From sequence record MH051917: 64,000 nucleotides of DNA; one strand, given 5' to 3'. The DNA comes from Enterobacteria phage vB_EcoM_IME341. Made by a program: the position numbers and the translations under genes. A model generated the notes under the pieces. It was not told where the DNA came from. It saw only the letters and a program-made list of their open reading frames with translations, and did not search any database. Positions 2,205 to 22,901 of this stretch are shown here, in pieces (within the stretch, counting starts at the first letter, position 1; each line of letters begins with the position of its first letter).

Positions 2205-2211
2205 ATGATAA

Positions 2212-2235
2212 AGGGACCGTAAGGTCCCTTTTTTT
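2212..2235. terminator. bidirectional intrinsic terminator between convergent rnlB and gp24 paralogue
   Basis: AGGGACC-GTAA-GGTCCCT hairpin flanked by A-run and T-run. Confidence 0.7.
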
Positions 2236-3517
2236 AGTTTTTATCCAATGGAGGAAGTTTAACACCAAGATAAGAACTCAATTGACTTTGATTAGCCATT
2301 TTGTCCATATCCGCACCGTCAATAATACGAGCTTCTTTGTCGTCTTTAGCGACGGTATAAGGATTCGCAGTCAATGCATACCGAGCCAATAAAGATATGG
2401 TAGGTTGCAATGAATCTGGGTCTACAATAACCTTGAATTCACCTACTGAAGTATCACCTTCATCATCAACTTCTTCGAGCCCTTCCGTATAAGGCGCATA
2501 ATACAAAGATGCGACCGTCTGCCCTTCACCCATCTGAGCATTTACACCGACAATAACATAATCACACGGACTATTCATATCAGCATAAAGTGGTAGACCG
2601 TTCTTTAATATGCCATAAGCTAATTCGTCTTGGTCTTCTTTTTTCTCAACCCAACCGGATGCAGCTAAAATAGCGGCGCAACGAGAAGAAGCTACTGCAT
2701 AAGTACCTGCAAACGAAGTCTGGCGTTGAACAGCAGAATTCATTTCACACATATAGTAATACAAGGTACGCGCTCGGTCTTGGGCGTTATCATATTGTGG
2801 GTCTGTTAAGTTCAAGACGCCTTTCTCGGAAACTCCTTGGACTTTAAAACGAGAACTTACCGTAATTAAGGACTGTAATACGTCTTTATTAATTTCTTCG
2901 GCCATTTGAATAGCCAAAATATTGTCTATAAAGTCTGGTGCATTAAACCCGTTGGATTCTAAATCCTGGGCCAGTTCTACAGTCAAAGAAGTTTTAAGTT
3001 TACGCGATTTAACTTCAGTCTGCCACTTATCAATACGGAATCCTGCTTCAGCAATCTCAGGATGGCCTTTTTCAAATTTATTGGTAAAGGCTGCATCAGA
3101 CATCATACGAATATGGCCTGCTGCAATAGCTTCTGAAATAACTTCACCCAAATCGGTTTCAGTTGTTCCTGCAAACGGAGAAGCTTCTAATACCTTGAAA
3201 ACCACACTTTCGAATTGGAACATATCACCAACAGCATATGCTTCGTCTTTATCGGTGAATTCAGGAATGTTTTTACGTTCGAACATACCAATTTCGCCTG
3301 CAAAAGTGGCTCCGCCGAGATAAGTCATTTTATCGTCTGGGTTTAAAACACGGACACCATATAATGCTGCAACAGGTTGAGTAGTTTTTTGTTCAGCAAC
3401 AAGGGCTTTAAAAATTCTTTTATTAGTTGCCTGGGTATATGAAAGAAGATTAGGACGGGCGACCTGGTTGGCCGCCGTCAAAGTTGATTCTTGTATTAAT
3501 GCATTAATCTTTTTCAT
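2234..3517 (-). CDS. second, diverged copy of capsid vertex protein gp24
   Basis: 427 aa, same length and alignable end to end with adjacent gp24 at clearly lower identity. Confidence 0.85.
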   Translation of the reverse strand: MKKINALIQESTLTAANQVARPNLLSYTQATNKRIFKALVAEQKTTQPVAALYGVRVLNPDDKMTYLGGATFAGEIGMFERKNIPEFTDKDEAYAVGDMFQFESVVFKVLEASPFAGTTETDLGEVISEAIAAGHIRMMSDAAFTNKFEKGHPEIAEAGFRIDKWQTEVKSRKLKTSLTVELAQDLESNGFNAPDFIDNILAIQMAEEINKDVLQSLITVSSRFKVQGVSEKGVLNLTDPQYDNAQDRARTLYYYMCEMNSAVQRQTSFAGTYAVASSRCAAILAASGWVEKKEDQDELAYGILKNGLPLYADMNSPCDYVIVGVNAQMGEGQTVASLYYAPYTEGLEEVDDEGDTSVGEFKVIVDPDSLQPTISLLARYALTANPYTVAKDDKEARIIDGADMDKMANQSQLSSYLGVKLPPLDKN

Positions 3518-4798
3518 TTATGCCTCGTAAATAATTGGAGGAAGTTTAACACCAAGCAGATAAGACATATTACTCTGCCCTGCCATTAAATCCATATTAG
3601 TTGCGTCTATAACACGAGCTTCTTTATCATCTTTAGCAACGGTATACGGGTTTGCTGAAAGTGCATAACGAACCATCAGAGAAATAGCCGGTTGCAAACT
3701 ATCAGGGTCTACAATAACTTTATAGGCACCAACATGTTCTTGGTCGTCTAAATCCAGACCTTCGGTATACGGAGCATAGAAAATAGAACCAACTACTTCA
3801 TTACCGCCGTAATCTTCTTTAACGCCTACGATAACATAATCTAAAGGACTATTAACATCACAGAATACAGGCAATCCATTAATCAAATAACCGTAAGCAG
3901 TTTCTGGGAGCCAAGCTTCATCTTCTGGTTTATGTTTCAACCAACCTGAACCTGCAAGCATTGCGGCTACACGACTAGATGCGACAACAAACGTACCTGA
4001 ATAAGAAGTGGTTTTCTGAATTTCAGAATTCATCTCACAAACCATTTCATATAATTTACGTGCACTTTCTGGAGCGGAATTATAGGACAAATCAATAATA
4101 CCGTTATCAGATACACCAGTTACTTTGTAACGTTTAGATACGGTAATCAAGGATTGTAATACGTCTTTATTGATTTCATCAGCCATTACAGTGGCTAAAA
4201 GGTCTTCTAAGAACGCAGGGGCGTCGAAGCCATTAGATTCCATGTCTTGGGCTAGTTCTACAGTCAAAGCGGTTTTAAGCTTACGGGACTTAACAGGGGC
4301 GTTCCATTTATTAACCTGGAATACTGCATTGCTAATTTCAACATCACCTGCTTCGAATTTTTCTGTGTGGGCCGCATCAGGAACAAGACGACAAGTTAAT
4401 GACACCAAACCTTCTTGAAGGGCATCAGCCAATTCTGTAGCGCTAGTGGATGCGAGTGGGCTTGCTTGAAGAGCCTTATAAACCACATTCTGATACTTGA
4501 AATATTCACCCTCGGCAATCGCCTGGGCCTTATCTGTGAGTTCCGGGATAGTTTCACGGTCTTTAGAACCAACTTCACCGCCATAAACGGCACCAGTTTG
4601 GAAGCTGAATTCATTATCAGGGGTAAGATATTTGACACCATACAATGCAGCAATAGGCTGGCTAGTACGTTGTTCAGCAATAATATCACGGTAAATCAAT
4701 TTGGTTGTAGCACGGGTCAAAGCAACAAGATTAGGGCGACCCAATGAGTTGCTAGAAGTAGTTGTTGACTCGCGCAGTAATTCGTTAATCTTTGCCAT
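3518..4798 (-). CDS. 24: capsid vertex protein gp24
   Basis: 426 aa; N-terminus MAKINELLRESTTTSSNS; position next to gp23 as in T4. Confidence 0.9.
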   Translation of the reverse strand: MAKINELLRESTTTSSNSLGRPNLVALTRATTKLIYRDIIAEQRTSQPIAALYGVKYLTPDNEFSFQTGAVYGGEVGSKDRETIPELTDKAQAIAEGEYFKYQNVVYKALQASPLASTSATELADALQEGLVSLTCRLVPDAAHTEKFEAGDVEISNAVFQVNKWNAPVKSRKLKTALTVELAQDMESNGFDAPAFLEDLLATVMADEINKDVLQSLITVSKRYKVTGVSDNGIIDLSYNSAPESARKLYEMVCEMNSEIQKTTSYSGTFVVASSRVAAMLAGSGWLKHKPEDEAWLPETAYGYLINGLPVFCDVNSPLDYVIVGVKEDYGGNEVVGSIFYAPYTEGLDLDDQEHVGAYKVIVDPDSLQPAISLMVRYALSANPYTVAKDDKEARVIDATNMDLMAGQSNMSYLLGVKLPPIIYEA

Positions 4799-4826
4799 TG
4801 CGCTTTCCTTATTGAGGGTATATGTT

Positions 4827-4834
4827 TATTTATA
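4827..4834 (-). promoter_or_regulatory. late promoter TATAAATA for gp24
   Basis: TATTTATA on plus strand about 29 nt upstream of gp24 start. Confidence 0.6.
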
Positions 4835-4840
4835 AAAGTT

Positions 4841-4880
4841 GTTTACAGCAAGGTTATCACATGTTACTATAGACCTATCA
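4841..4880 (+). promoter_or_regulatory. early promoter cassette (GTTTAC-17-TACTAT-AGACCTATCA)
   Basis: consensus cassette; precedes ORF 4900. Confidence 0.65.
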
Positions 4881-4899
4881 AAACATGAGGAGATTAAAA

Positions 4900-5166
4900 A
4901 TGAACAAGTTAAACTTTATTCGTACTACTCTTTCCGCTCTTGATAAAGACATCAAAGCCCTGGTAGAAAAATATGGTTCCAATCCTAACGGTAATGCAGT
5001 GAATGCACTAGTTAAGAAATACGAAGCCATGGCTTATGCTACCGACTTCTGGTGGAACGGTGAATACTCTACCCATACCAAAGACAAATCTGGTAACTGG
5101 CTGAAAATCCAAGAAAATCGTATTGACTTCCGTGATATCATCAACCGTCGTGTCAAAGCAGCGTAA
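4900..5166 (+). CDS. hypothetical protein, first gene of insert between gp24 and gp23
   Basis: ATG 4900 after GAGGAG; 88 aa. Confidence 0.5.
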   Translation: MNKLNFIRTTLSALDKDIKALVEKYGSNPNGNAVNALVKKYEAMAYATDFWWNGEYSTHTKDKSGNWLKIQENRIDFRDIINRRVKAA

Positions 5167-5169
5167 AAT

Positions 5170-5841
5170 ATGAATTATTTAATTTACAAAATAACCAATC
5201 TCATTAATAACAAGATTTATGTTGGAGCCCATGCCACTACAGATGTTAATGATTCTTATATGGGCTCCGGGGTTAACATAGTAAAATCCATAAAGAAATA
5301 CGGCTTAGAGAATTTTAAAAAGGAAATCCTTTTCAATTTCGAAACATCTGAAGAGATGTATGCTAAGGAAGCCGAACTAGTTGACGAGGCTTTTGTTATG
5401 AGAACAGATACTTATAATGCAGCTTTAGGTGGTAAGGGTAATCCTGTTATAGTAGCTTTACAGGAACCTGGGTATCGTGAGATGTTATCCGAAAAGACCA
5501 AGGCAGGTATGACCAAGGAAGTAAGGGCCAAAATGTCTAAATCGAAAACAGGTTCTAAAGAATCCAAAGAGCACCGAGAAAACAAATCTATAGCTAATAA
5601 AAAGTTTTATGAGAATAGGGATTCTCATCTTAAAGGTAGGAAACTATCGGAAGAACATAAAGCCAAAATTAGAGAGAACTCTAATAAAGGTAAGAAATTT
5701 GTATTTGTTGATATAATGATTAAAGGATATAGATTTGACAGATACGAAACCGCCGCCGAATTTTTTAATGTTACCGGAGCTACCATTCGTAATTGGATTA
5801 AAGAAACAAGGCCTCAATTTGACGATTGCTATAAGTTATAG
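5170..5841 (+). CDS. GIY-YIG homing endonuclease, SegD-like by position
   Basis: N-terminal IYKITNLINNKIYVGAH...YMGSG GIY-YIG motif; C-terminal NUMOD-like K/S-rich repeats; sits between genes 23 and 24. Confidence 0.8.
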   Translation: MNYLIYKITNLINNKIYVGAHATTDVNDSYMGSGVNIVKSIKKYGLENFKKEILFNFETSEEMYAKEAELVDEAFVMRTDTYNAALGGKGNPVIVALQEPGYREMLSEKTKAGMTKEVRAKMSKSKTGSKESKEHRENKSIANKKFYENRDSHLKGRKLSEEHKAKIRENSNKGKKFVFVDIMIKGYRFDRYETAAEFFNVTGATIRNWIKETRPQFDDCYKL

Positions 5842-5851
5842 AAACAAGAAT

Positions 5852-5869
5852 GGGAGACCGAAGTCTCCC
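5852..5869 (-). terminator. terminator hairpin downstream of gp23
   Basis: GGGAGAC-TTCG-GTCTCCC on minus strand, 30 nt after gp23 stop, followed by U-rich tract. Confidence 0.6.
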
Positions 5870-5899
5870 AAATAATTTAAGAATTAATAACTTATGTTA

Positions 5900-7459
5900 T
5901 CAAATTCCCTTAACGTAAACGCGACGGAAGTAACCATTCAGACCGAGGCTGTTAACGATGTCAGGCATACCATTCTGAATACGTTTGGTAGGCGCCTGAG
6001 CAGCTGGGTCAGCGAACGGGTTAATACCGATACCGTAACGAGTTTTGAAGCCCATTACCGGTTGGAAGTTCTTCGGATCGGAACCACGCAGCGGAGTCAG
6101 TGCAACGTACGGAGCATAGTAGATACCTGCGTCCATTTCGTTAGAACCTTTATAACCGATGGTGAAGTAATCGGAACGAGCATACTGGTCGATGTAAACA
6201 CGATATTTACCACCAAGAACACCGGCAAATACTGCTTTGGTTGTGTCAACGTTGAAACCCTGACCCAAACCTTGAGCTGCATAACTTACAGAAGTATCAA
6301 CTGCAGCCAGTACGTTAACTACGTTACGGGAAGCGATGATGAAGTTACCAGCACCACGACCGGTCTGACGAGCGATTTCGGCTGCTTCTTTATCAATCTG
6401 GAACAGAAGGGCTTTAAAGCTCTCACCGGCCCAACGAGCACCACGGATATCAATCGGGTCCTGGAAGTCAAACACACCAGCTTTAGCGCCAACGGTGTTG
6501 GTCATACCAGATTTACCAACCTGTGCAGAGTAGTTAATCCAATCGATAACTTCACGGTTGATTTCGAGCATAATTTCGGTAGCAAGGATACCGGACAGTT
6601 CAGCATCTGCATCCATACCGTGTACTGCACGAAGGTCCTGTGCCAGTTCGATAGAGTAGCTTGCTTTCAGCTGACGGGATTTAGCTTCGATAACTTGTTT
6701 GTCGATGCGGAAGCCCATTTCGTTCCACGGGTTATCGGTAGAACCGTTGAAACCTTCCTGAAGTTCAGCGATAGAAGTAGCCATACCTTCAGCGATTTCA
6801 GCCAGTTGACCAGCTTCAACCAGAGCGGTAACAGCAGCATCCAGTTTAGCGGCATCAGTAGCGCCTGCATCAACGGTCACAGCTTCAACAGCCTGGAAGT
6901 GTGCAGCACCGGTAGCTTCGAAGAAGTGAGAATAAATTTTACCAACTTCCAGAACTTTGCTTGCAGCCAGTGCTTCGAAAGTTTCAGCAGCACCCTGACC
7001 AGAGAACATAGCGTTCGGAGCATACATCGGATGGAAAGCTTCTTTAGCGCCTGCAGCGATAGGGTCTTTACCGTATACTGCACGCAGTGCAAATACCTGA
7101 CCAGTAGGGTTATTCAGAGGCTGAACACCACAAATATCAAAAGCAATCAGATGAGGAATAGCACGACGAACCATACCCATTACTGCCGGCCCAATCTGAG
7201 TTACAGCACCAGAGGTCTGGCCAGCTGCGATATTGGTAGCATCATAACCGTGGTCACCACCGATTTCAGCTTCAGTCAGGAAAGAACCAAATGCTTCGGA
7301 GATTTTTTCGTCACGATATTCTGGAGCAGTCAGGATGTCTTGTTCCTGGTTTTCGAAAATTTTAGCGATGATAGCTTGTTTAGAAGCACCAACGATTTCA
7401 GGAAGAGCTTCGTTTTCCAGCAGAGCGGACCATTTTTGAACTAATGCATTCTTTTTCAT
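5900..7459 (-). CDS. 23: major capsid protein gp23
   Basis: 519 aa; synteny 22-23-24; gp23/gp24 paralogy visible. Confidence 0.95.
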   Translation of the reverse strand: MKKNALVQKWSALLENEALPEIVGASKQAIIAKIFENQEQDILTAPEYRDEKISEAFGSFLTEAEIGGDHGYDATNIAAGQTSGAVTQIGPAVMGMVRRAIPHLIAFDICGVQPLNNPTGQVFALRAVYGKDPIAAGAKEAFHPMYAPNAMFSGQGAAETFEALAASKVLEVGKIYSHFFEATGAAHFQAVEAVTVDAGATDAAKLDAAVTALVEAGQLAEIAEGMATSIAELQEGFNGSTDNPWNEMGFRIDKQVIEAKSRQLKASYSIELAQDLRAVHGMDADAELSGILATEIMLEINREVIDWINYSAQVGKSGMTNTVGAKAGVFDFQDPIDIRGARWAGESFKALLFQIDKEAAEIARQTGRGAGNFIIASRNVVNVLAAVDTSVSYAAQGLGQGFNVDTTKAVFAGVLGGKYRVYIDQYARSDYFTIGYKGSNEMDAGIYYAPYVALTPLRGSDPKNFQPVMGFKTRYGIGINPFADPAAQAPTKRIQNGMPDIVNSLGLNGYFRRVYVKGI

Positions 7460-7480
7460 GTGTTGTATAACCTTATTAAA

Positions 7481-8296
7481 TTAAGAAATTCGTGATGCTG
7501 CGATTGCAGACAGGTCCGCGAAGGACAGGGTAGGCTTAGCGCCTTTTTCTTCAACTGCTTCCGAAATGTAATTCAGTGCTGCAGCATCGTCTTCAGTTTT
7601 ATTTATAGCGGCTTCGGTGATTGGTTTTTCAACGTCAGACTGACCTTTAACCATTTCAACGATAGCGCTAATTTTTTTACCAAATGCATCGGAATAATCC
7701 ATGCCTTCTACCAGAGAACTAACTTTTTCTTTCTGAGATTCGGTCAGGTCTTTGGTTGCTTCCGTAACAGCAACTTCACGCTGTACGTAATTGATATAAG
7801 AATCACGCTTACCAACTTCTTCGAACAGGCGAGCGGTTTCGGCTTTCTGTTCAGCCAATTCTTCTTCCATTTCAGCAACAACATCTACTGCTTCTTCTGG
7901 AACAACCACATTGTGTTCAACAAACAGTTCTTTCATACCCATCAACATGGATTCGAACAGTTCGGCTTTAATACCTTTATCAACAGCCAGCTGGTTTTCA
8001 GCCATCCATTCTTTAGCAACGTGGTCAAGGAAACGACCGGCAGCTTCTTGGATTTTCTTATCGGCTTTTTCTTCAGCTTCTTCTTTATTTTTCTCAACTT
8101 CTTCTTCCGCTTTTTCAGCGATTTTAGCGATGTGAGATTCAGCCAGTTTCACGGCGTGTTGCTTGACGGTAGCTTCGAATACAGTGCCGAAAGTTTCTTT
8201 TGCTTCCGGAGAAATATTAACTGATTCGAAAATACTATCAAGAGCAACGGAAGCATCAATATTCTGTGCTTCGGCAATCAGTTGTTCTTTAAGCAT
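7481..8296 (-). CDS. 22: prohead core scaffold protein gp22
   Basis: 271 aa, highly acidic coiled-coil; synteny. Confidence 0.85.
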   Translation of the reverse strand: MLKEQLIAEAQNIDASVALDSIFESVNISPEAKETFGTVFEATVKQHAVKLAESHIAKIAEKAEEEVEKNKEEAEEKADKKIQEAAGRFLDHVAKEWMAENQLAVDKGIKAELFESMLMGMKELFVEHNVVVPEEAVDVVAEMEEELAEQKAETARLFEEVGKRDSYINYVQREVAVTEATKDLTESQKEKVSSLVEGMDYSDAFGKKISAIVEMVKGQSDVEKPITEAAINKTEDDAAALNYISEAVEEKGAKPTLSFADLSAIAASRIS

Positions 8297-18958: not shown

Positions 18959-21358
18959 TTATGGTGCTGAGTTTAAAGTCACAAAATCTGACAATAGAAC
19001 CCATGCATTATCAACCAGAACATACGGAAGTCCATCAGCTGCAGGAGCAACAGGAGGGCGTTTAGCCAACTCAGTTTCTAGTGCAGTGATTTTACCTTCA
19101 GCCGCAGTTAAACGGGTTCCTAAATCAGCAACTTTATCAGATTCAACTTTAACCGCCGCTAAACCTGTTTCAAGAGTACCAACTTTACCTTCTACCGTAC
19201 CTAAACGGGTATTGATTCCTGCAACTTTATCGGATTCAACTTTAACTGCTGCCAACCCGGTTTCAAGAGTACTAACTTCACCTTCAACAACGCCTAAACG
19301 GGTATTGATTCCAGCCACTTTACCAGATTCAACTTCAACAACACCTAAACGGGTATCGATCCCTGCAACTTTATCGGATTCAACTTTAACATCGTCCAAA
19401 CCGGTTTCTAAGGTGGTAATTTTACCTTCAGCTGTACCTAAACGGGTATTAATTCCTGCAACTTTATCAGATTCAACTTTAACAGCAGCTAAACCTGTTT
19501 CTAAGGTGACAATTTTACCTTCAGCAGTAGTGACTCTGGTGGTTAAAGGAGCTATTTTAGCGGTGTCCAATTTAATATCGGTAATTTCACCTTCATTAGC
19601 AGCTACTCGTCCGGTTAAAGTAACGATATCGCCTTTGTTCTTAGTTATATCAGCTTTAATAGGAGTTAATTGTGATTCTATAGAACTCACATCTAAGGCC
19701 AAAGCAGTAACATCAGAATCAGTGGTATCGGTTTTAGATTCAAGTGCCGTTATTTTTCCGTTAACGGTAACATCACTTTCTTCTAAAGCTGTGATACGAC
19801 TATCTTGCTCGGTGTCTTTAGATTTTAACAAAACGATATCGGCTTTAATTTCTCCTACTGAAGTGTTTAAAGCTCCGGTACGTGTATCAAGAGAAGAAAT
19901 TGAAGTGTCATTGGAATCGACTCTTGCCGTTAAAGCTGATACTTTACCGTCTGTAACCAATAAAGAAGCTTTGACTGCATCAATTTCTGCGGTGCCGTCA
20001 AGGATTTCCTCCCATGCAGCATCTTTACGTCCGTACAATTTACCGTCAGCAGGAGCTTCACCCAATTTAGTAGGCATTTGGGCTTCAAGGCCTTTAACAG
20101 AGTTTATTAACCCTCGTTCTTCTACAGTACTACCGTTAGGGTTGGTTCCTTCAATCTGGTTGGTAATTTTAAGAATAGAACCCTTAATACCGGTTTGGTT
20201 ATTACCAATCTCTGCCTGCAGGTCCTGAATAGTAGAGGCTGAAGTATTACCTTGAGTTGTAAGGTCATTCAAACGTTTATTAATTGTTCCTGCAGCCGGA
20301 CTTACATCGGCACCAATTTTACGGTCAATATCAGAAACCTGGAAACGAAGCCCTTCAGACGAACTATCACCAACTATATTTTTTAGCTCATTAACATCAG
20401 TACGTAAGCCACCTAATCTACCGTTAATAGAAGTAGGGGTATCCGCAGTACCGATAGTGGTCTCTACCGCAGTAACTCTAGGAACCAAACCATTATTAAC
20501 TGTGTTTTCCAAAGTGGAAGTTTTAGTTTCTAGTGTGGTTACTCTTGTATCAATAGAGCCTTTATCAAAACCTATACTGGTCTTGATGGAATCTATTGAT
20601 TCATTAAAGCTTTCAGCAGCAGTTTCAAGAGCAGAAATCCTGGTATACGCTGGTTGTTTACCTACGGTATCAATATGAGGACCTAGTTCTTCGCGAATTT
20701 CGTTAAGCTTAAGACCAAGTTGCCCTACATCAGAATCTTCGTAATTCTTTTCAAGGGTATCTATACGTTGTGAATGGTCGACAATAGCACTGGTATTATC
20801 CATAATGCGACGTTTCATGCCGGTGGCTTCAGAAGTTTCACCTGGAGGAAGCGGCTGGCTGTTTATGTCCTGGTTTGCATAGTGGCCAATTTCAGATTTG
20901 AGAAGATTTATATTTTCTCTGACGGTGAGATATGGGCCATCTAAAGACGGGTCATAATAACCTACATCTTCTTCTAAAAAATTAAAATTAACGGTTAAGT
21001 CACCTAATTCTTGTTTAGTTTCGGAAGCCTTTTCATCCACAGCCAGTATATCGACACGGTTCTTTTCAATTTGCTGAATAACCGCCGTATCAGTAGAAAT
21101 ATCTAGGGCTTCATTAATCAAATTAACGTTATCCACAAGCTCGTTAATTTTGTCTTTAGAAGCTATACTGTTTTCTTCTAATCTAACTACGTTGGTTTGT
21201 ACTCCTAAAGCAGGGGCGTTCAAATTACCGTCGTGACCGTATTTAGTCGTGGCTCCTTCAATACATTCTCCATTGCGTATCCAACGGATACGCTCTTGGG
21301 ATGCATCAGGTACACCATCGACAAACGGAAGTTCTTTAATACTCAGTTTGTCAATCAT
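18959..21358 (-). CDS. wac: fibritin (whisker/neck fibre), enlarged to about 799 aa with C-terminal repeat array and foldon-like end
   Basis: start moved to MIDKLSIKELPFVDG (T4 wac begins ...LPFVDG); coiled-coil; C-terminal ...DGLPYVLVDNAWVLLSDF. Confidence 0.8.
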   Translation of the reverse strand: MIDKLSIKELPFVDGVPDASQERIRWIRNGECIEGATTKYGHDGNLNAPALGVQTNVVRLEENSIASKDKINELVDNVNLINEALDISTDTAVIQQIEKNRVDILAVDEKASETKQELGDLTVNFNFLEEDVGYYDPSLDGPYLTVRENINLLKSEIGHYANQDINSQPLPPGETSEATGMKRRIMDNTSAIVDHSQRIDTLEKNYEDSDVGQLGLKLNEIREELGPHIDTVGKQPAYTRISALETAAESFNESIDSIKTSIGFDKGSIDTRVTTLETKTSTLENTVNNGLVPRVTAVETTIGTADTPTSINGRLGGLRTDVNELKNIVGDSSSEGLRFQVSDIDRKIGADVSPAAGTINKRLNDLTTQGNTSASTIQDLQAEIGNNQTGIKGSILKITNQIEGTNPNGSTVEERGLINSVKGLEAQMPTKLGEAPADGKLYGRKDAAWEEILDGTAEIDAVKASLLVTDGKVSALTARVDSNDTSISSLDTRTGALNTSVGEIKADIVLLKSKDTEQDSRITALEESDVTVNGKITALESKTDTTDSDVTALALDVSSIESQLTPIKADITKNKGDIVTLTGRVAANEGEITDIKLDTAKIAPLTTRVTTAEGKIVTLETGLAAVKVESDKVAGINTRLGTAEGKITTLETGLDDVKVESDKVAGIDTRLGVVEVESGKVAGINTRLGVVEGEVSTLETGLAAVKVESDKVAGINTRLGTVEGKVGTLETGLAAVKVESDKVADLGTRLTAAEGKITALETELAKRPPVAPAADGLPYVLVDNAWVLLSDFVTLNSAP
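18990..19560 (-). repeat. in-frame tandem repeats of about 93 bp (31 aa, VESDKVAGINTRLGTxEGKxxTLETGLAAVK) inside wac
   Basis: about 5 copies visible in DNA and protein, one truncated. Confidence 0.7.
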
Positions 21359-21368
21359 TTTTATTTCC

Positions 21369-22901
21369 TTAAGCAACTTTAATAATGAATAGGATGGACA
21401 TAGTCCAAGGACGGTTTTCGTTACCAATTAACCCTTCACTGTTTAGGGTAGTTCTTGAATCTCGTGAACCTGAACCATCAATTTCGTATCCTTCGTTTGT
21501 AAAGTAAGAACGGTTATCCCAGTCCAGTCCTTTACGAGTACCGGCAAAGTTAGAACGAACGGTATTACCAAATGCACCCGCATTGTCGTGTTCACCAAAG
21601 CCGCCAGCGTGTTTATGGAAACGAAGTTGCTGGGCTTGTACAGTACCATGGCCATATGAACCACAGCCTACGCCTAATCTTGGTTTACCTTTGGCATCAT
21701 TACCTTTGGCATCTCTAATTCTAACGTTGGCATCCCATTCTCTTAATCCGCCGTCATTAGTCTGGTTTGCTCCACGCGGATATAATCCTCGGAAGTCGGG
21801 ACGAGCACCAGTTGAACCCCATTTACTACCAACTACATTTCGGAATCCTTGTTCACCAGAGTTACCACCATCACAAACAGCCCAACCTGCAGGGATATTA
21901 TTAATCTGGCCTCCCCACATAACAATAGTACCGATAGGGACAGAATCTTTTAATTGGTCGATAGTAACAACATCACGCCCATTGCGACGCAAATTACCAT
22001 TAACGTTTAAAGTACCGTTAATGGTGCCGCCTGTGGTAGAAATAACGTTAGCATTATATGCCAATGCCGTATTCCCATCACCGGAACCAACCGTAGTCGA
22101 TAATTTAACAACACCCAACCTTCCAGTAGTACCAGTACGAGAAAGAAGAGTTGAAGGAGATAAAGCTATATTAGAATCGCTCCCAGCCGAAGCTTCTTGT
22201 GGAGTAGCCAATCTAATAATACCTGCTCGCCCTTGGGTAGAAGTTAAAGATTTTAACCCGGAAGGAGAAATTGCCACACCATTGGTCAATGTACCATTTG
22301 CCACTTCGGCATTTGTTGCGATTCTAACAATACCTTCAACAGTTTGGGTAGCGCTGGCATAAGTCGGTAATGCGGATGTAGCGGCACCAATTGCCTGGGC
22401 GGTTTTCAGAGGTGTCATTGCCGTCGTATCATCTGTACCTGCTAGAGCAGCCGGCAGGGTTGAAATCTTGAGTACGCCTGTAGTGTTCTCTGTGGCTAAA
22501 CGATTGGTGAATGTATAATCTATAGTAGCTTTCAAAGACGATGCTACGATTGCAGCCTGGGTTTCTGTTCCAGCAATGGCTTCATCATTAGTGGCATAAC
22601 GGGTGATGCCTACATAAGTTTCTGTTGCTTGAGTAGGAATATCTAAACGACCTTTTAAAGTGGCCGGAGTTACCGCAGAGAAAGTATCAGTACCATCAAT
22701 AACTTCTTGTTGGGTCGCTAATCTAATAATACCCTGTTCTGTTTCAGAAGCCGAAGGTATATTACCTGTAACACCTATAGCGGAAATAGACGCCAATGCG
22801 TCCTGGACATTAGTAATAGAGGGGTCAAAATTCGACCCGGTAGGGTCGAATGTTTTAAATTCTGATTTATCACTTATGTGTTTTAGTGTATTTGTAGACA
22901 T
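21369..22901 (-). CDS. 12: short tail fibre gp12
   Basis: N-terminus ...KFDPTGSNFDPSITNVQDA...LATQQEVIDGT matches recalled T4 gp12. Confidence 0.85.
   Translation of the reverse strand: MSTNTLKHISDKSEFKTFDPTGSNFDPSITNVQDALASISAIGVTGNIPSASETEQGIIRLATQQEVIDGTDTFSAVTPATLKGRLDIPTQATETYVGITRYATNDEAIAGTETQAAIVASSLKATIDYTFTNRLATENTTGVLKISTLPAALAGTDDTTAMTPLKTAQAIGAATSALPTYASATQTVEGIVRIATNAEVANGTLTNGVAISPSGLKSLTSTQGRAGIIRLATPQEASAGSDSNIALSPSTLLSRTGTTGRLGVVKLSTTVGSGDGNTALAYNANVISTTGGTINGTLNVNGNLRRNGRDVVTIDQLKDSVPIGTIVMWGGQINNIPAGWAVCDGGNSGEQGFRNVVGSKWGSTGARPDFRGLYPRGANQTNDGGLREWDANVRIRDAKGNDAKGKPRLGVGCGSYGHGTVQAQQLRFHKHAGGFGEHDNAGAFGNTVRSNFAGTRKGLDWDNRSYFTNEGYEIDGSGSRDSRTTLNSEGLIGNENRPWTMSILFIIKVA

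Follow-up and report, generated by a model that had tools for sequence, protein, structure and literature searches.

Why would a T4-like phage keep two genes for its capsid vertex protein? The head of T4 serves as the reference model of how large prolate capsids are assembled, and in the textbook picture it has one specialized vertex protein. A single gp24 gene fills all 11 vertices in T4, whereas two adjacent genes, 24a and 24b, are found in the DNA of Enterobacteria phage vB_EcoM_IME341 (MH051917), of which a stretch of 64,000 nucleotides (hereafter, the window) was analyzed here. We consider it likely that the minus-strand region 2210–4834 of this window is a late operon, and that the products of 24a and 24b are both structural vertex proteins with nonredundant roles.

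The window is assigned to Dhakavirus, near phages IME08 and JS98. Its 24a–24b region shows 97–98% nucleotide identity to both phages, the spacer between gene 23 and 24a is 100% identical to that of IME08, and its 24b shares 99.5% identity with JS98 24b. The duplication is already present in public annotation and is not new: the records of JS98, JS10, and IME08 annotate "24a" and "24b, gp24 head vertex protein," the VR5 record has "capsid vertex protein I/II," and the genes are gp108/gp109 in Salmonella phage S16. All these phages have the same genes as the window in the same order and orientation and with the same junction, and their records give names only.

Homology and Operon Structure of the Two Copies

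A first-pass annotation of the window had described two adjacent open reading frames (ORFs) of 426 and 427 amino acids as full-length gp24 homologs, alignable end to end but clearly diverged. Both ORFs were recovered at exactly the coordinates it gave (table 1), and BLASTP aligned their products from residue 1 to residue 422/424 with 239 identities in 428 positions (56%), 76% positives, and an E-value of 1e-179. Each product also matches Pfam PF07068 (Gp23 family) at 329 bits, as well as phrog_138. Homology between the two copies is evidently far beyond chance. The product of the upstream gene 23 shares 28% identity with 24a across 251 residues, and both copies are far closer to T4 gp24 than to gp23.

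The same annotation was right about the T4-like N-terminus of the copy starting at 3518. This product, 24a, begins MAKINELLRESTTT, and its first 14 residues are those of T4 gp24, including the protease site LLRE/S (the slash marks the presumed cleavage position). Identity to T4 gp24 is 70% for 24a and 57% for 24b. Based on these comparisons, 24a is best regarded as the ortholog of T4 gp24, which itself belongs to the 24a lineage.

To the sequences of solved structures, 24b aligned over residues 1–424 with gp24 of 1YUE/7VS5 (503 bits, E-value = 5e-150) and scored 48 bits against gp23; all solved gp24 structures in the Protein Data Bank (PDB) are from T4. An AlphaFold2 model of 24b, with a predicted template modeling (TM) score of 0.61 and low confidence in the N-arm and residues 345–388, was used for fold assignment only. 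Its best structural matches were T4 gp24 in 5VF3, 7VRT, and 1YUE (TM-score 0.68–0.81; 0.75 to gp24 in 5VF3 and approximately 0.5 to gp23), that is, an HK97-type fold with the gp24 insertion domain. The full-length alignment at 57% identity is stronger evidence than this model of moderate quality.

The T4-type late promoter box TATAAATA has 15 matches in the window, none of which lies inside 24a or 24b; the one listed in table 1 is the only box in or near the pair. Terminators near the pair were found only after 24b and after gp23, which thus has its own, and neither a TATAAATA box nor a terminator was detected within or between 24a and 24b. The hairpin after 24b terminates both the 24a–24b unit and the convergent rnlB gene. 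In addition, the TAA stop codon of 24a (3520–3518) abuts the ATG of 24b (3517–3515), and together with the GAGG inside 24a this layout probably favors translational coupling. Similar touching or overlapping junctions (−4 to +1 nt) are present in JS10, VR5, dhabil, S16, and P545, as well as in L009, L014, L016, L020, L021, L023, and L025 among the further loci compared, with no exception among the two-copy loci examined. Considering the single promoter, the touching stop and start codons, and the single terminator, the pair is probably one late bicistronic operon with probable translational coupling, in which 24b is read as cotranscribed with 24a and as lacking a promoter of its own.

The gene order is gp21–gp22–gp23–(segD)–24a–24b, followed by the convergent rnlB (RNA ligase 2), so both copies lie in the late head-gene cluster downstream of gene 23 and under a late promoter. 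Both resemble T4 gp24 in length, in position after gene 23, in late promoter control, and in the N-terminal L-x-E/S site, which is cleaved by gp21 in T4.

Table 1. Coordinates of the 24a–24b Operon and of the Upstream gp23 Gene in the Window
Feature	Coordinates	Strand	Remarks
Gene 24a	3518..4798	−	426 aa; ortholog of T4 gp24 capsid vertex protein (assigned from sequence); "24a" in JS98, IME08
Gene 24b	2234..3517	−	427 aa; old gp24 paralog; "24b" in JS98, IME08
T4-type late promoter box TATAAATA	4827..4834	−	29 nt 5' of the 24a start codon
Shine-Dalgarno region AAGGAAAG of 24a	4803..4810	−	From sequence reading
24b ribosome-binding site GAGG	3523..3526	−	Within the last 24a codons, 5 nt before the 24b ATG
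GC-rich hairpin AAAGGGACC-ttac-GGTCCCTTT	2210..2231	Both strands carry T runs	Bidirectional terminator
gp23 gene	5900..7459	−	Upstream of 24a

Age, Selection, and Linkage of the Pair

To place the two copies, we built a neighbor-joining tree from 105 gp24 sequences, with Pseudotevenvirus and Slopekvirus as the root. All 24b sequences, including that of the window, form one clade with 100% bootstrap support. The canonical enteric gp24 clade, which contains all 24a copies and the gp24 proteins of T4-like phages, CC31, PM2, PEi20, and others, excludes 24b with the same 100% support, and a grouping of 24b with 24a, as would be expected had 24b arisen recently within the local 24a lineage, received 0%. 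The distance between 24a and 24b is about equal to the distance of each to the gp24 of Acinetobacter phages. Shared derived states offered too few informative columns (two shared vs. three ancestral) for a precise placement of 24b.

Tajima relative-rate tests were carried out with 11 outgroups on four phage pairs (JS98-type, S16, P545, and FBB1). The asymmetry between 24a and 24b was nonsignificant in the first three pairs, and in the FBB1 pair it appeared with 4 of the 11 outgroups. Such rate symmetry implies that the split is old, and that the lower identity of 24b to T4 reflects age rather than faster evolution. The earlier description of the copy at 2234 as the more divergent one thus holds relative to T4 (57% vs. 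70%), because T4 gp24 lies in the 24a lineage, and does not hold as a statement about rate: both copies have changed similarly since the split, and among orthologs the rate of 24b is, if anything, the lower of the two. A recent duplication followed by a burst of change in 24b was rejected on the basis of the rate tests (nonsignificant in three of four pairs) and of the 0% support for 24b + 24a monophyly. These data date the split no later than the radiation of the T4-like gp24 genes of enterobacterial phages. Comparison with related genomes, which had been proposed along with the first description, accordingly revealed an ancient duplication common to several genera and not local to this genome.

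The paired 24a copies are scattered within the canonical clade: those of FBB1 type are basal, one metagenomic copy falls with CC31/T4 and another with PM2, and the remaining ones make up the JS98/S16/Marfavirus clade. The 24b tree broadly mirrors that of 24a (r = 0.80 between the two distance matrices, 15 pairs). An old duplication with later, repeated losses of 24b, among them one in the T4 lineage, would produce this pattern; so would movement of the pair, or of 24b, from one lineage to another.

Selection was examined between orthologs at unsaturated distances with the Nei-Gojobori method (NG86). The ratio of nonsynonymous to synonymous substitution rates (dN/dS, or omega) is 0.035–0.076 for 24a and 0.023–0.071 for 24b. 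Across deep splits, fewer nonsynonymous changes have accumulated in 24b (dN = 0.167, vs. 0.226 for 24a, between JS98 and P545), and the mean protein distance across 15 genome pairs is 0.31 for 24a and 0.25 for 24b. Both genes thus appear to be under equally strong purifying selection and to be functional. Gene conversion or concerted evolution was rejected as a process acting on the pair, since within a genome the copies share 63% nucleotide identity, with near-saturated third positions and synonymous sites and no identical run longer than 21 nt. A foreign composition of 24b was also rejected, as GC content and GC content at third codon positions (GC3) are alike in both copies.

Two gp24 copies were detected in approximately 117 of 1,417 T4-like phage records with a gp24 homolog (~8%), in Dhakavirus, Gaprivervirus, Gelderlandvirus, Marfavirus, Erwinia phage FBB1, and many metagenomic lineages; Erwinia phage Cronus is a further, putative, two-copy phage. 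In every context examined, 24b lies directly downstream of a 24a-type gene. These contexts comprise about 30 loci (the window, IME08, JS10, VR5, TH41, dhabil, S16, P545, L009, L014/15, L016, L020–25, and IMG/VR loci, 16 of 16 of the latter included), and no lone 24b was found among them. An apparent tandem of two canonical-type genes, P0109 and P0066, on contigs of equal length was rejected as a coincidence of short contigs.

One locus is informative about how the pair moves. The 80-kb metagenomic contig L014 (SRR22802695) has Jiaodavirus-like flanks and a two-gene vertex module. Compared with the single-copy phage pzk-kv4, amino acid identity is 96.5% for gp23, 95.6% for the DprA-like protein, and 91.9% for RnlB, and the flanks show 83–97% nucleotide identity in 200-nt windows. 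Identity collapses from about 80 nt into gene 24 until the module ends at the start of the DprA-like gene, with sharp recombination boundaries. Against L008, positions 4805–8047 of the contig hold 24a, 24b, and orfX (239 aa) where cultured Jiaodaviruses have a single gp24, to which its 24a is 69% identical. This swap indicates that one-gene and two-gene vertex modules are alternative cassettes of one slot. The pair seems to move as a unit, and this gp23 seems to be compatible with either one gp24 or two.

Mosaicism was observed within the pair when the window was compared with L010–L013. Its 24a is closest to VR5 and JS10 (dN 0.033–0.039), and its 24b is closest to Gaprivervirus TH41 (dN 0.032, vs. 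0.06–0.075 to VR5/JS10). The different nearest relatives of the two genes suggest that related phages recombined in or close to the 24a/24b junction.

Candidate Roles of 24b

Several features of the proteins bear on what the second copy may do. The protease-site context is LLRE/S in 24a and LIQE/S in 24b, and residues 7–11 read [LI][LI]xE-S in all 29 of the 29 24b-clade sequences. According to a T4 head review (PMC9958956), the prohead protease cuts off the first 10 residues of gp24 once it has joined the prohead. The conserved site argues that 24b is likewise exposed to gp21 within proheads.

Comparison of 108 canonical gp24 and 29 24b sequences revealed 131 columns conserved in both lineages and 11 that are conserved but different. 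Six of these 11 fall in residues 26–57 (A26S, T32N, L34R, Y36F, K56R, and Y57V). In T4 numbering, positions 335 (E or Q) and 415 (L or Y) also discriminate the two copies, as do 34 and 57. Residues ~220–360, which we take to be the A domain (the boundaries are approximate and our own), are 35–60% identical between 24a and 24b; the spine-helix and C-terminal shell regions are 65–85% identical, with 85% in residues 361–400. Thus, 24b differs from T4 gp24 in conserved N-arm changes and in a more diverged A-domain region. In T4, according to the review, the N-terminal region of gp24 shifts to the outer surface upon expansion and contacts neighboring subunits (PMC9958956). No residue signature separating paired 24a from single-copy gp24, such as subfunctionalization might have left, was found, so that 24a has the look of a generic vertex protein that has stayed as it was, and 24b that of an addition. 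Together, these clues favor a nonredundant structural role for 24b with altered neighbor contacts. The question of mixed or alternative pentamers, raised in the first-pass annotation, is a legitimate one.

A reasonable model is that 24a and 24b would be made together late in infection, that both would enter the prohead shell at five-fold positions, and that both would be trimmed after Glu10 by the gp21 protease. The generic vertex protein would be 24a, with 24b as an add-on specialist whose conserved N-arm (residues 26–57) would provide different contacts with its neighbors. Most likely, 24b would occupy a subset of the 11 nonportal vertices of the prolate head or be paired with 24a within vertices. 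A more specific version, in which the copies hold distinct five-fold positions (e.g., ten shoulder vertices built of 24a and the apical vertex, across from the portal, of 24b; the converse; or fixed mixed pentamers), is put forward only tentatively, as a possibility that we hold to be doubtful.

It could instead be that either protein builds all 11 vertices and that both are kept for dosage or as alternatives for different conditions (temperature, pH, the gut, antigenic variation, or escape from capsid-sensing host systems), giving particles with a stochastic mixture or with one type at a time. One gp24 suffices in T4 and most relatives, the pair and the single gene are interchangeable in nearly identical Jiaodavirus-like backgrounds, and some two-copy phages (the VR group) are low-temperature phages. 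According to PMC10580926, gp24 helps the capsid to withstand low pH, 37 °C, and proteases, so variants could be tuned to the environment. However, pure redundancy is rarely so long-lived, and here both copies are constrained (omega 0.02–0.08) with symmetric divergence. Moreover, 24b is the sole gp24 in none of the approximately 30 contexts, one promoter with coupled translation leaves no means of alternate expression, and 24b has conserved N-arm residues of its own. We regard this alternative as unlikely. A 24b that never stays in the shell, acting as a transient assembly factor (in vertex nucleation, proofreading, or gp21 triggering) or as a decoy for host defense and absent from mature heads, is highly improbable. 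A regulatory paralog is conceivable because, according to PMC9958956, protease activation in T4 is believed to be set off when gp24 attaches to the vertices of the prohead. Yet 24b is conserved over its whole length, including the P-domain and the C-terminal regions of shell contact (131 shared columns; 85% in 361–400), its protease-site context is invariant in 29/29 sequences, as expected for exposure to gp21 in the prohead, and the constraint on it is equal to or stronger than that on 24a.

Origin is a separate matter. Instead of arising in place, 24b might have been captured by recombination from a deep-branching T4-like lineage and set beside the resident gp24, with the pair now moving as a unit. 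The exclusion of 24b from the entire canonical clade of enteric gp24 proteins (bootstrap, 100%), the cassette-type lateral replacement visible in L014, and the mosaicism within the pair (24a of the window nearest VR5/JS10, 24b nearest TH41) are all compatible with capture. We still find it rather improbable: no donor lineage with a 24b-type sole gp24 was found, GC and GC3 are equal in both copies, and the scattered paired 24a copies and mirroring 24b trees fit an old in-place duplication with losses equally well. Capture would concern origin only and leaves the functional reading unchanged. That 24b is a decaying duplicate, a pseudogene in the making, can virtually be dismissed. Only its lower identity to T4 would speak for decay, and the selection analysis refuted it, for the frame is intact in every genome, omega is 0.02–0.07, dN is below that of 24a at deep splits, and 24b is kept in at least five genera and many metagenomic lineages.

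Nonredundant structural roles for both copies thus remain the explanation that we prefer, and several observations weigh against it. One gp24 is enough for T4 and over 90% of its relatives to form a head of this type. The gp23 of L014 is 96.5% identical to that of single-copy relatives, which implies a lattice with no obvious need for a second vertex protein. Codon bias is slightly weaker in 24b (effective number of codons, 42 vs. 38 for 24a), and this may reflect lower abundance. The argument from the N-arm combines sequence position with what is generally known of the T4 capsid. The AlphaFold model is of mediocre quality (mean predicted local distance difference test score, 65.6), and the tree is a neighbor-joining tree only, in which the attachment of 24b among the deep branches has 20–32% bootstrap. 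Finally, a full-text literature search returned no virion proteomics, cryo-electron microscopy, or genetics for any two-copy phage, nor any discussion of a second gp24; the Klebsiella phage proteome of PMC13119998 concerns a single-copy Jiaodavirus, and hits in a transposon-mutagenesis preprint and in the Sextaphag paper were not relevant.

Flanking Genes and Wider Meaning of the Pair

The slot after 24b is variable: it spans 1431–2618 in L019 (IME08), 2676–4506 in L009, 4326–5841 in L020, 4345–5882 in L021, and 7327–8046 in L014. In IME08 it holds a 395-aa collagen-repeat "tail fiber-like" gene between 24b and rnlB. The window lacks this gene, and nothing else of substance distinguishes the two phages here. 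In FBB1-type contigs resembling Erwinia phages, a collagen-repeat protein in the same orientation (phrog_5073) is followed by a small protein matching the C-terminal capsid-binding end of Hoc (phrog_1149), and in L014 the slot holds a 239-aa ORF without assignment. Fiber or decoration proteins may be linked to the vertex module; a clean co-occurrence of 24b with collagen-like genes was not found by tblastn, in which matches were swamped by the collagen repeats.

Between gene 23 and 24a, positions 4885–5841 (+) of the window encode a 93-aa ORF (phrog_6003) and a 223-aa SegD-like homing endonuclease of the GIY-YIG type (phrog_314), accompanied by a sigma-70-like promoter at 4842–4870. This stretch is 100% identical to IME08, and copies at about 89% identity fill the same slot in Tequatrovirus/Mosigvirus-type phages. 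In JS10 and VR5 the small ORF stands alone there without the endonuclease, suggesting that the SegD-like gene is mobile between genera.

Three further ORFs of the window were also considered. A 516-aa ORF antisense to gp23 (5894–7444, +) has an odd composition with many S, T, F, C, and N residues; it is almost certainly no gene but a shadow ORF arising from the strong bias of the gp23 frame. For rnlB (1146–2204, +), the mechanical ORF start is 1146; the T4-like N-terminus begins at 1197 and an upstream ORF (827–1195, phrog_4301) ends shortly before it, so that the true start is probably 1197. An 822-aa ORF with a TTG start (18959–21427, −) lies at the position expected for fibritin (wac) from the T4 gene order, an identity that is putative; T4 fibritin has 487 amino acids and is far shorter.

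Capsid genes have been duplicated in tandem before. It is well established that the hexamer protein gp23 and the pentamer protein gp24 split from one ancestor, and there both copies were kept and labor was divided within one shell, as may also hold for 24a and 24b. That split is older and separates hexamer from pentamer roles, whereas 24a and 24b (56% identity) parted later, within the pentamer protein, and any division of labor between them is putative. In alpha-carboxysomes, the tandem paralogous genes CsoS4A and CsoS4B both encode caps for the five-fold vertices of an icosahedral shell. Their fold and system are unrelated, and the likeness to 24a/24b is one of analogy only.

To the names already in the records, the present analysis adds that the pair is ancient, equally constrained, strictly linked, probably coexpressed, and exchangeable as a cassette, and that T4 gp24 lies in the 24a lineage. 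Two vertex proteins have been kept over the long term, constrained and linked, in about 8% of T4-like records, among which are candidates for coliphage therapy such as JS98. If 24b is redundant, this long retention would need another explanation, and the question of vertex roles is directly testable with existing phages. Should 24b mark a subset of vertices, nonequivalent corners of a prolate shell would be specialized separately and would provide sites of defined position for engineering the capsid and for display. If the two copies hold distinct positions, the capsid would use three specialized HK97-fold paralogs, not two, and the head of T4, with its one gp24, would have been simplified secondarily and would not show the ancestral state, given that 24a and 24b parted before the radiation to which T4 belongs.

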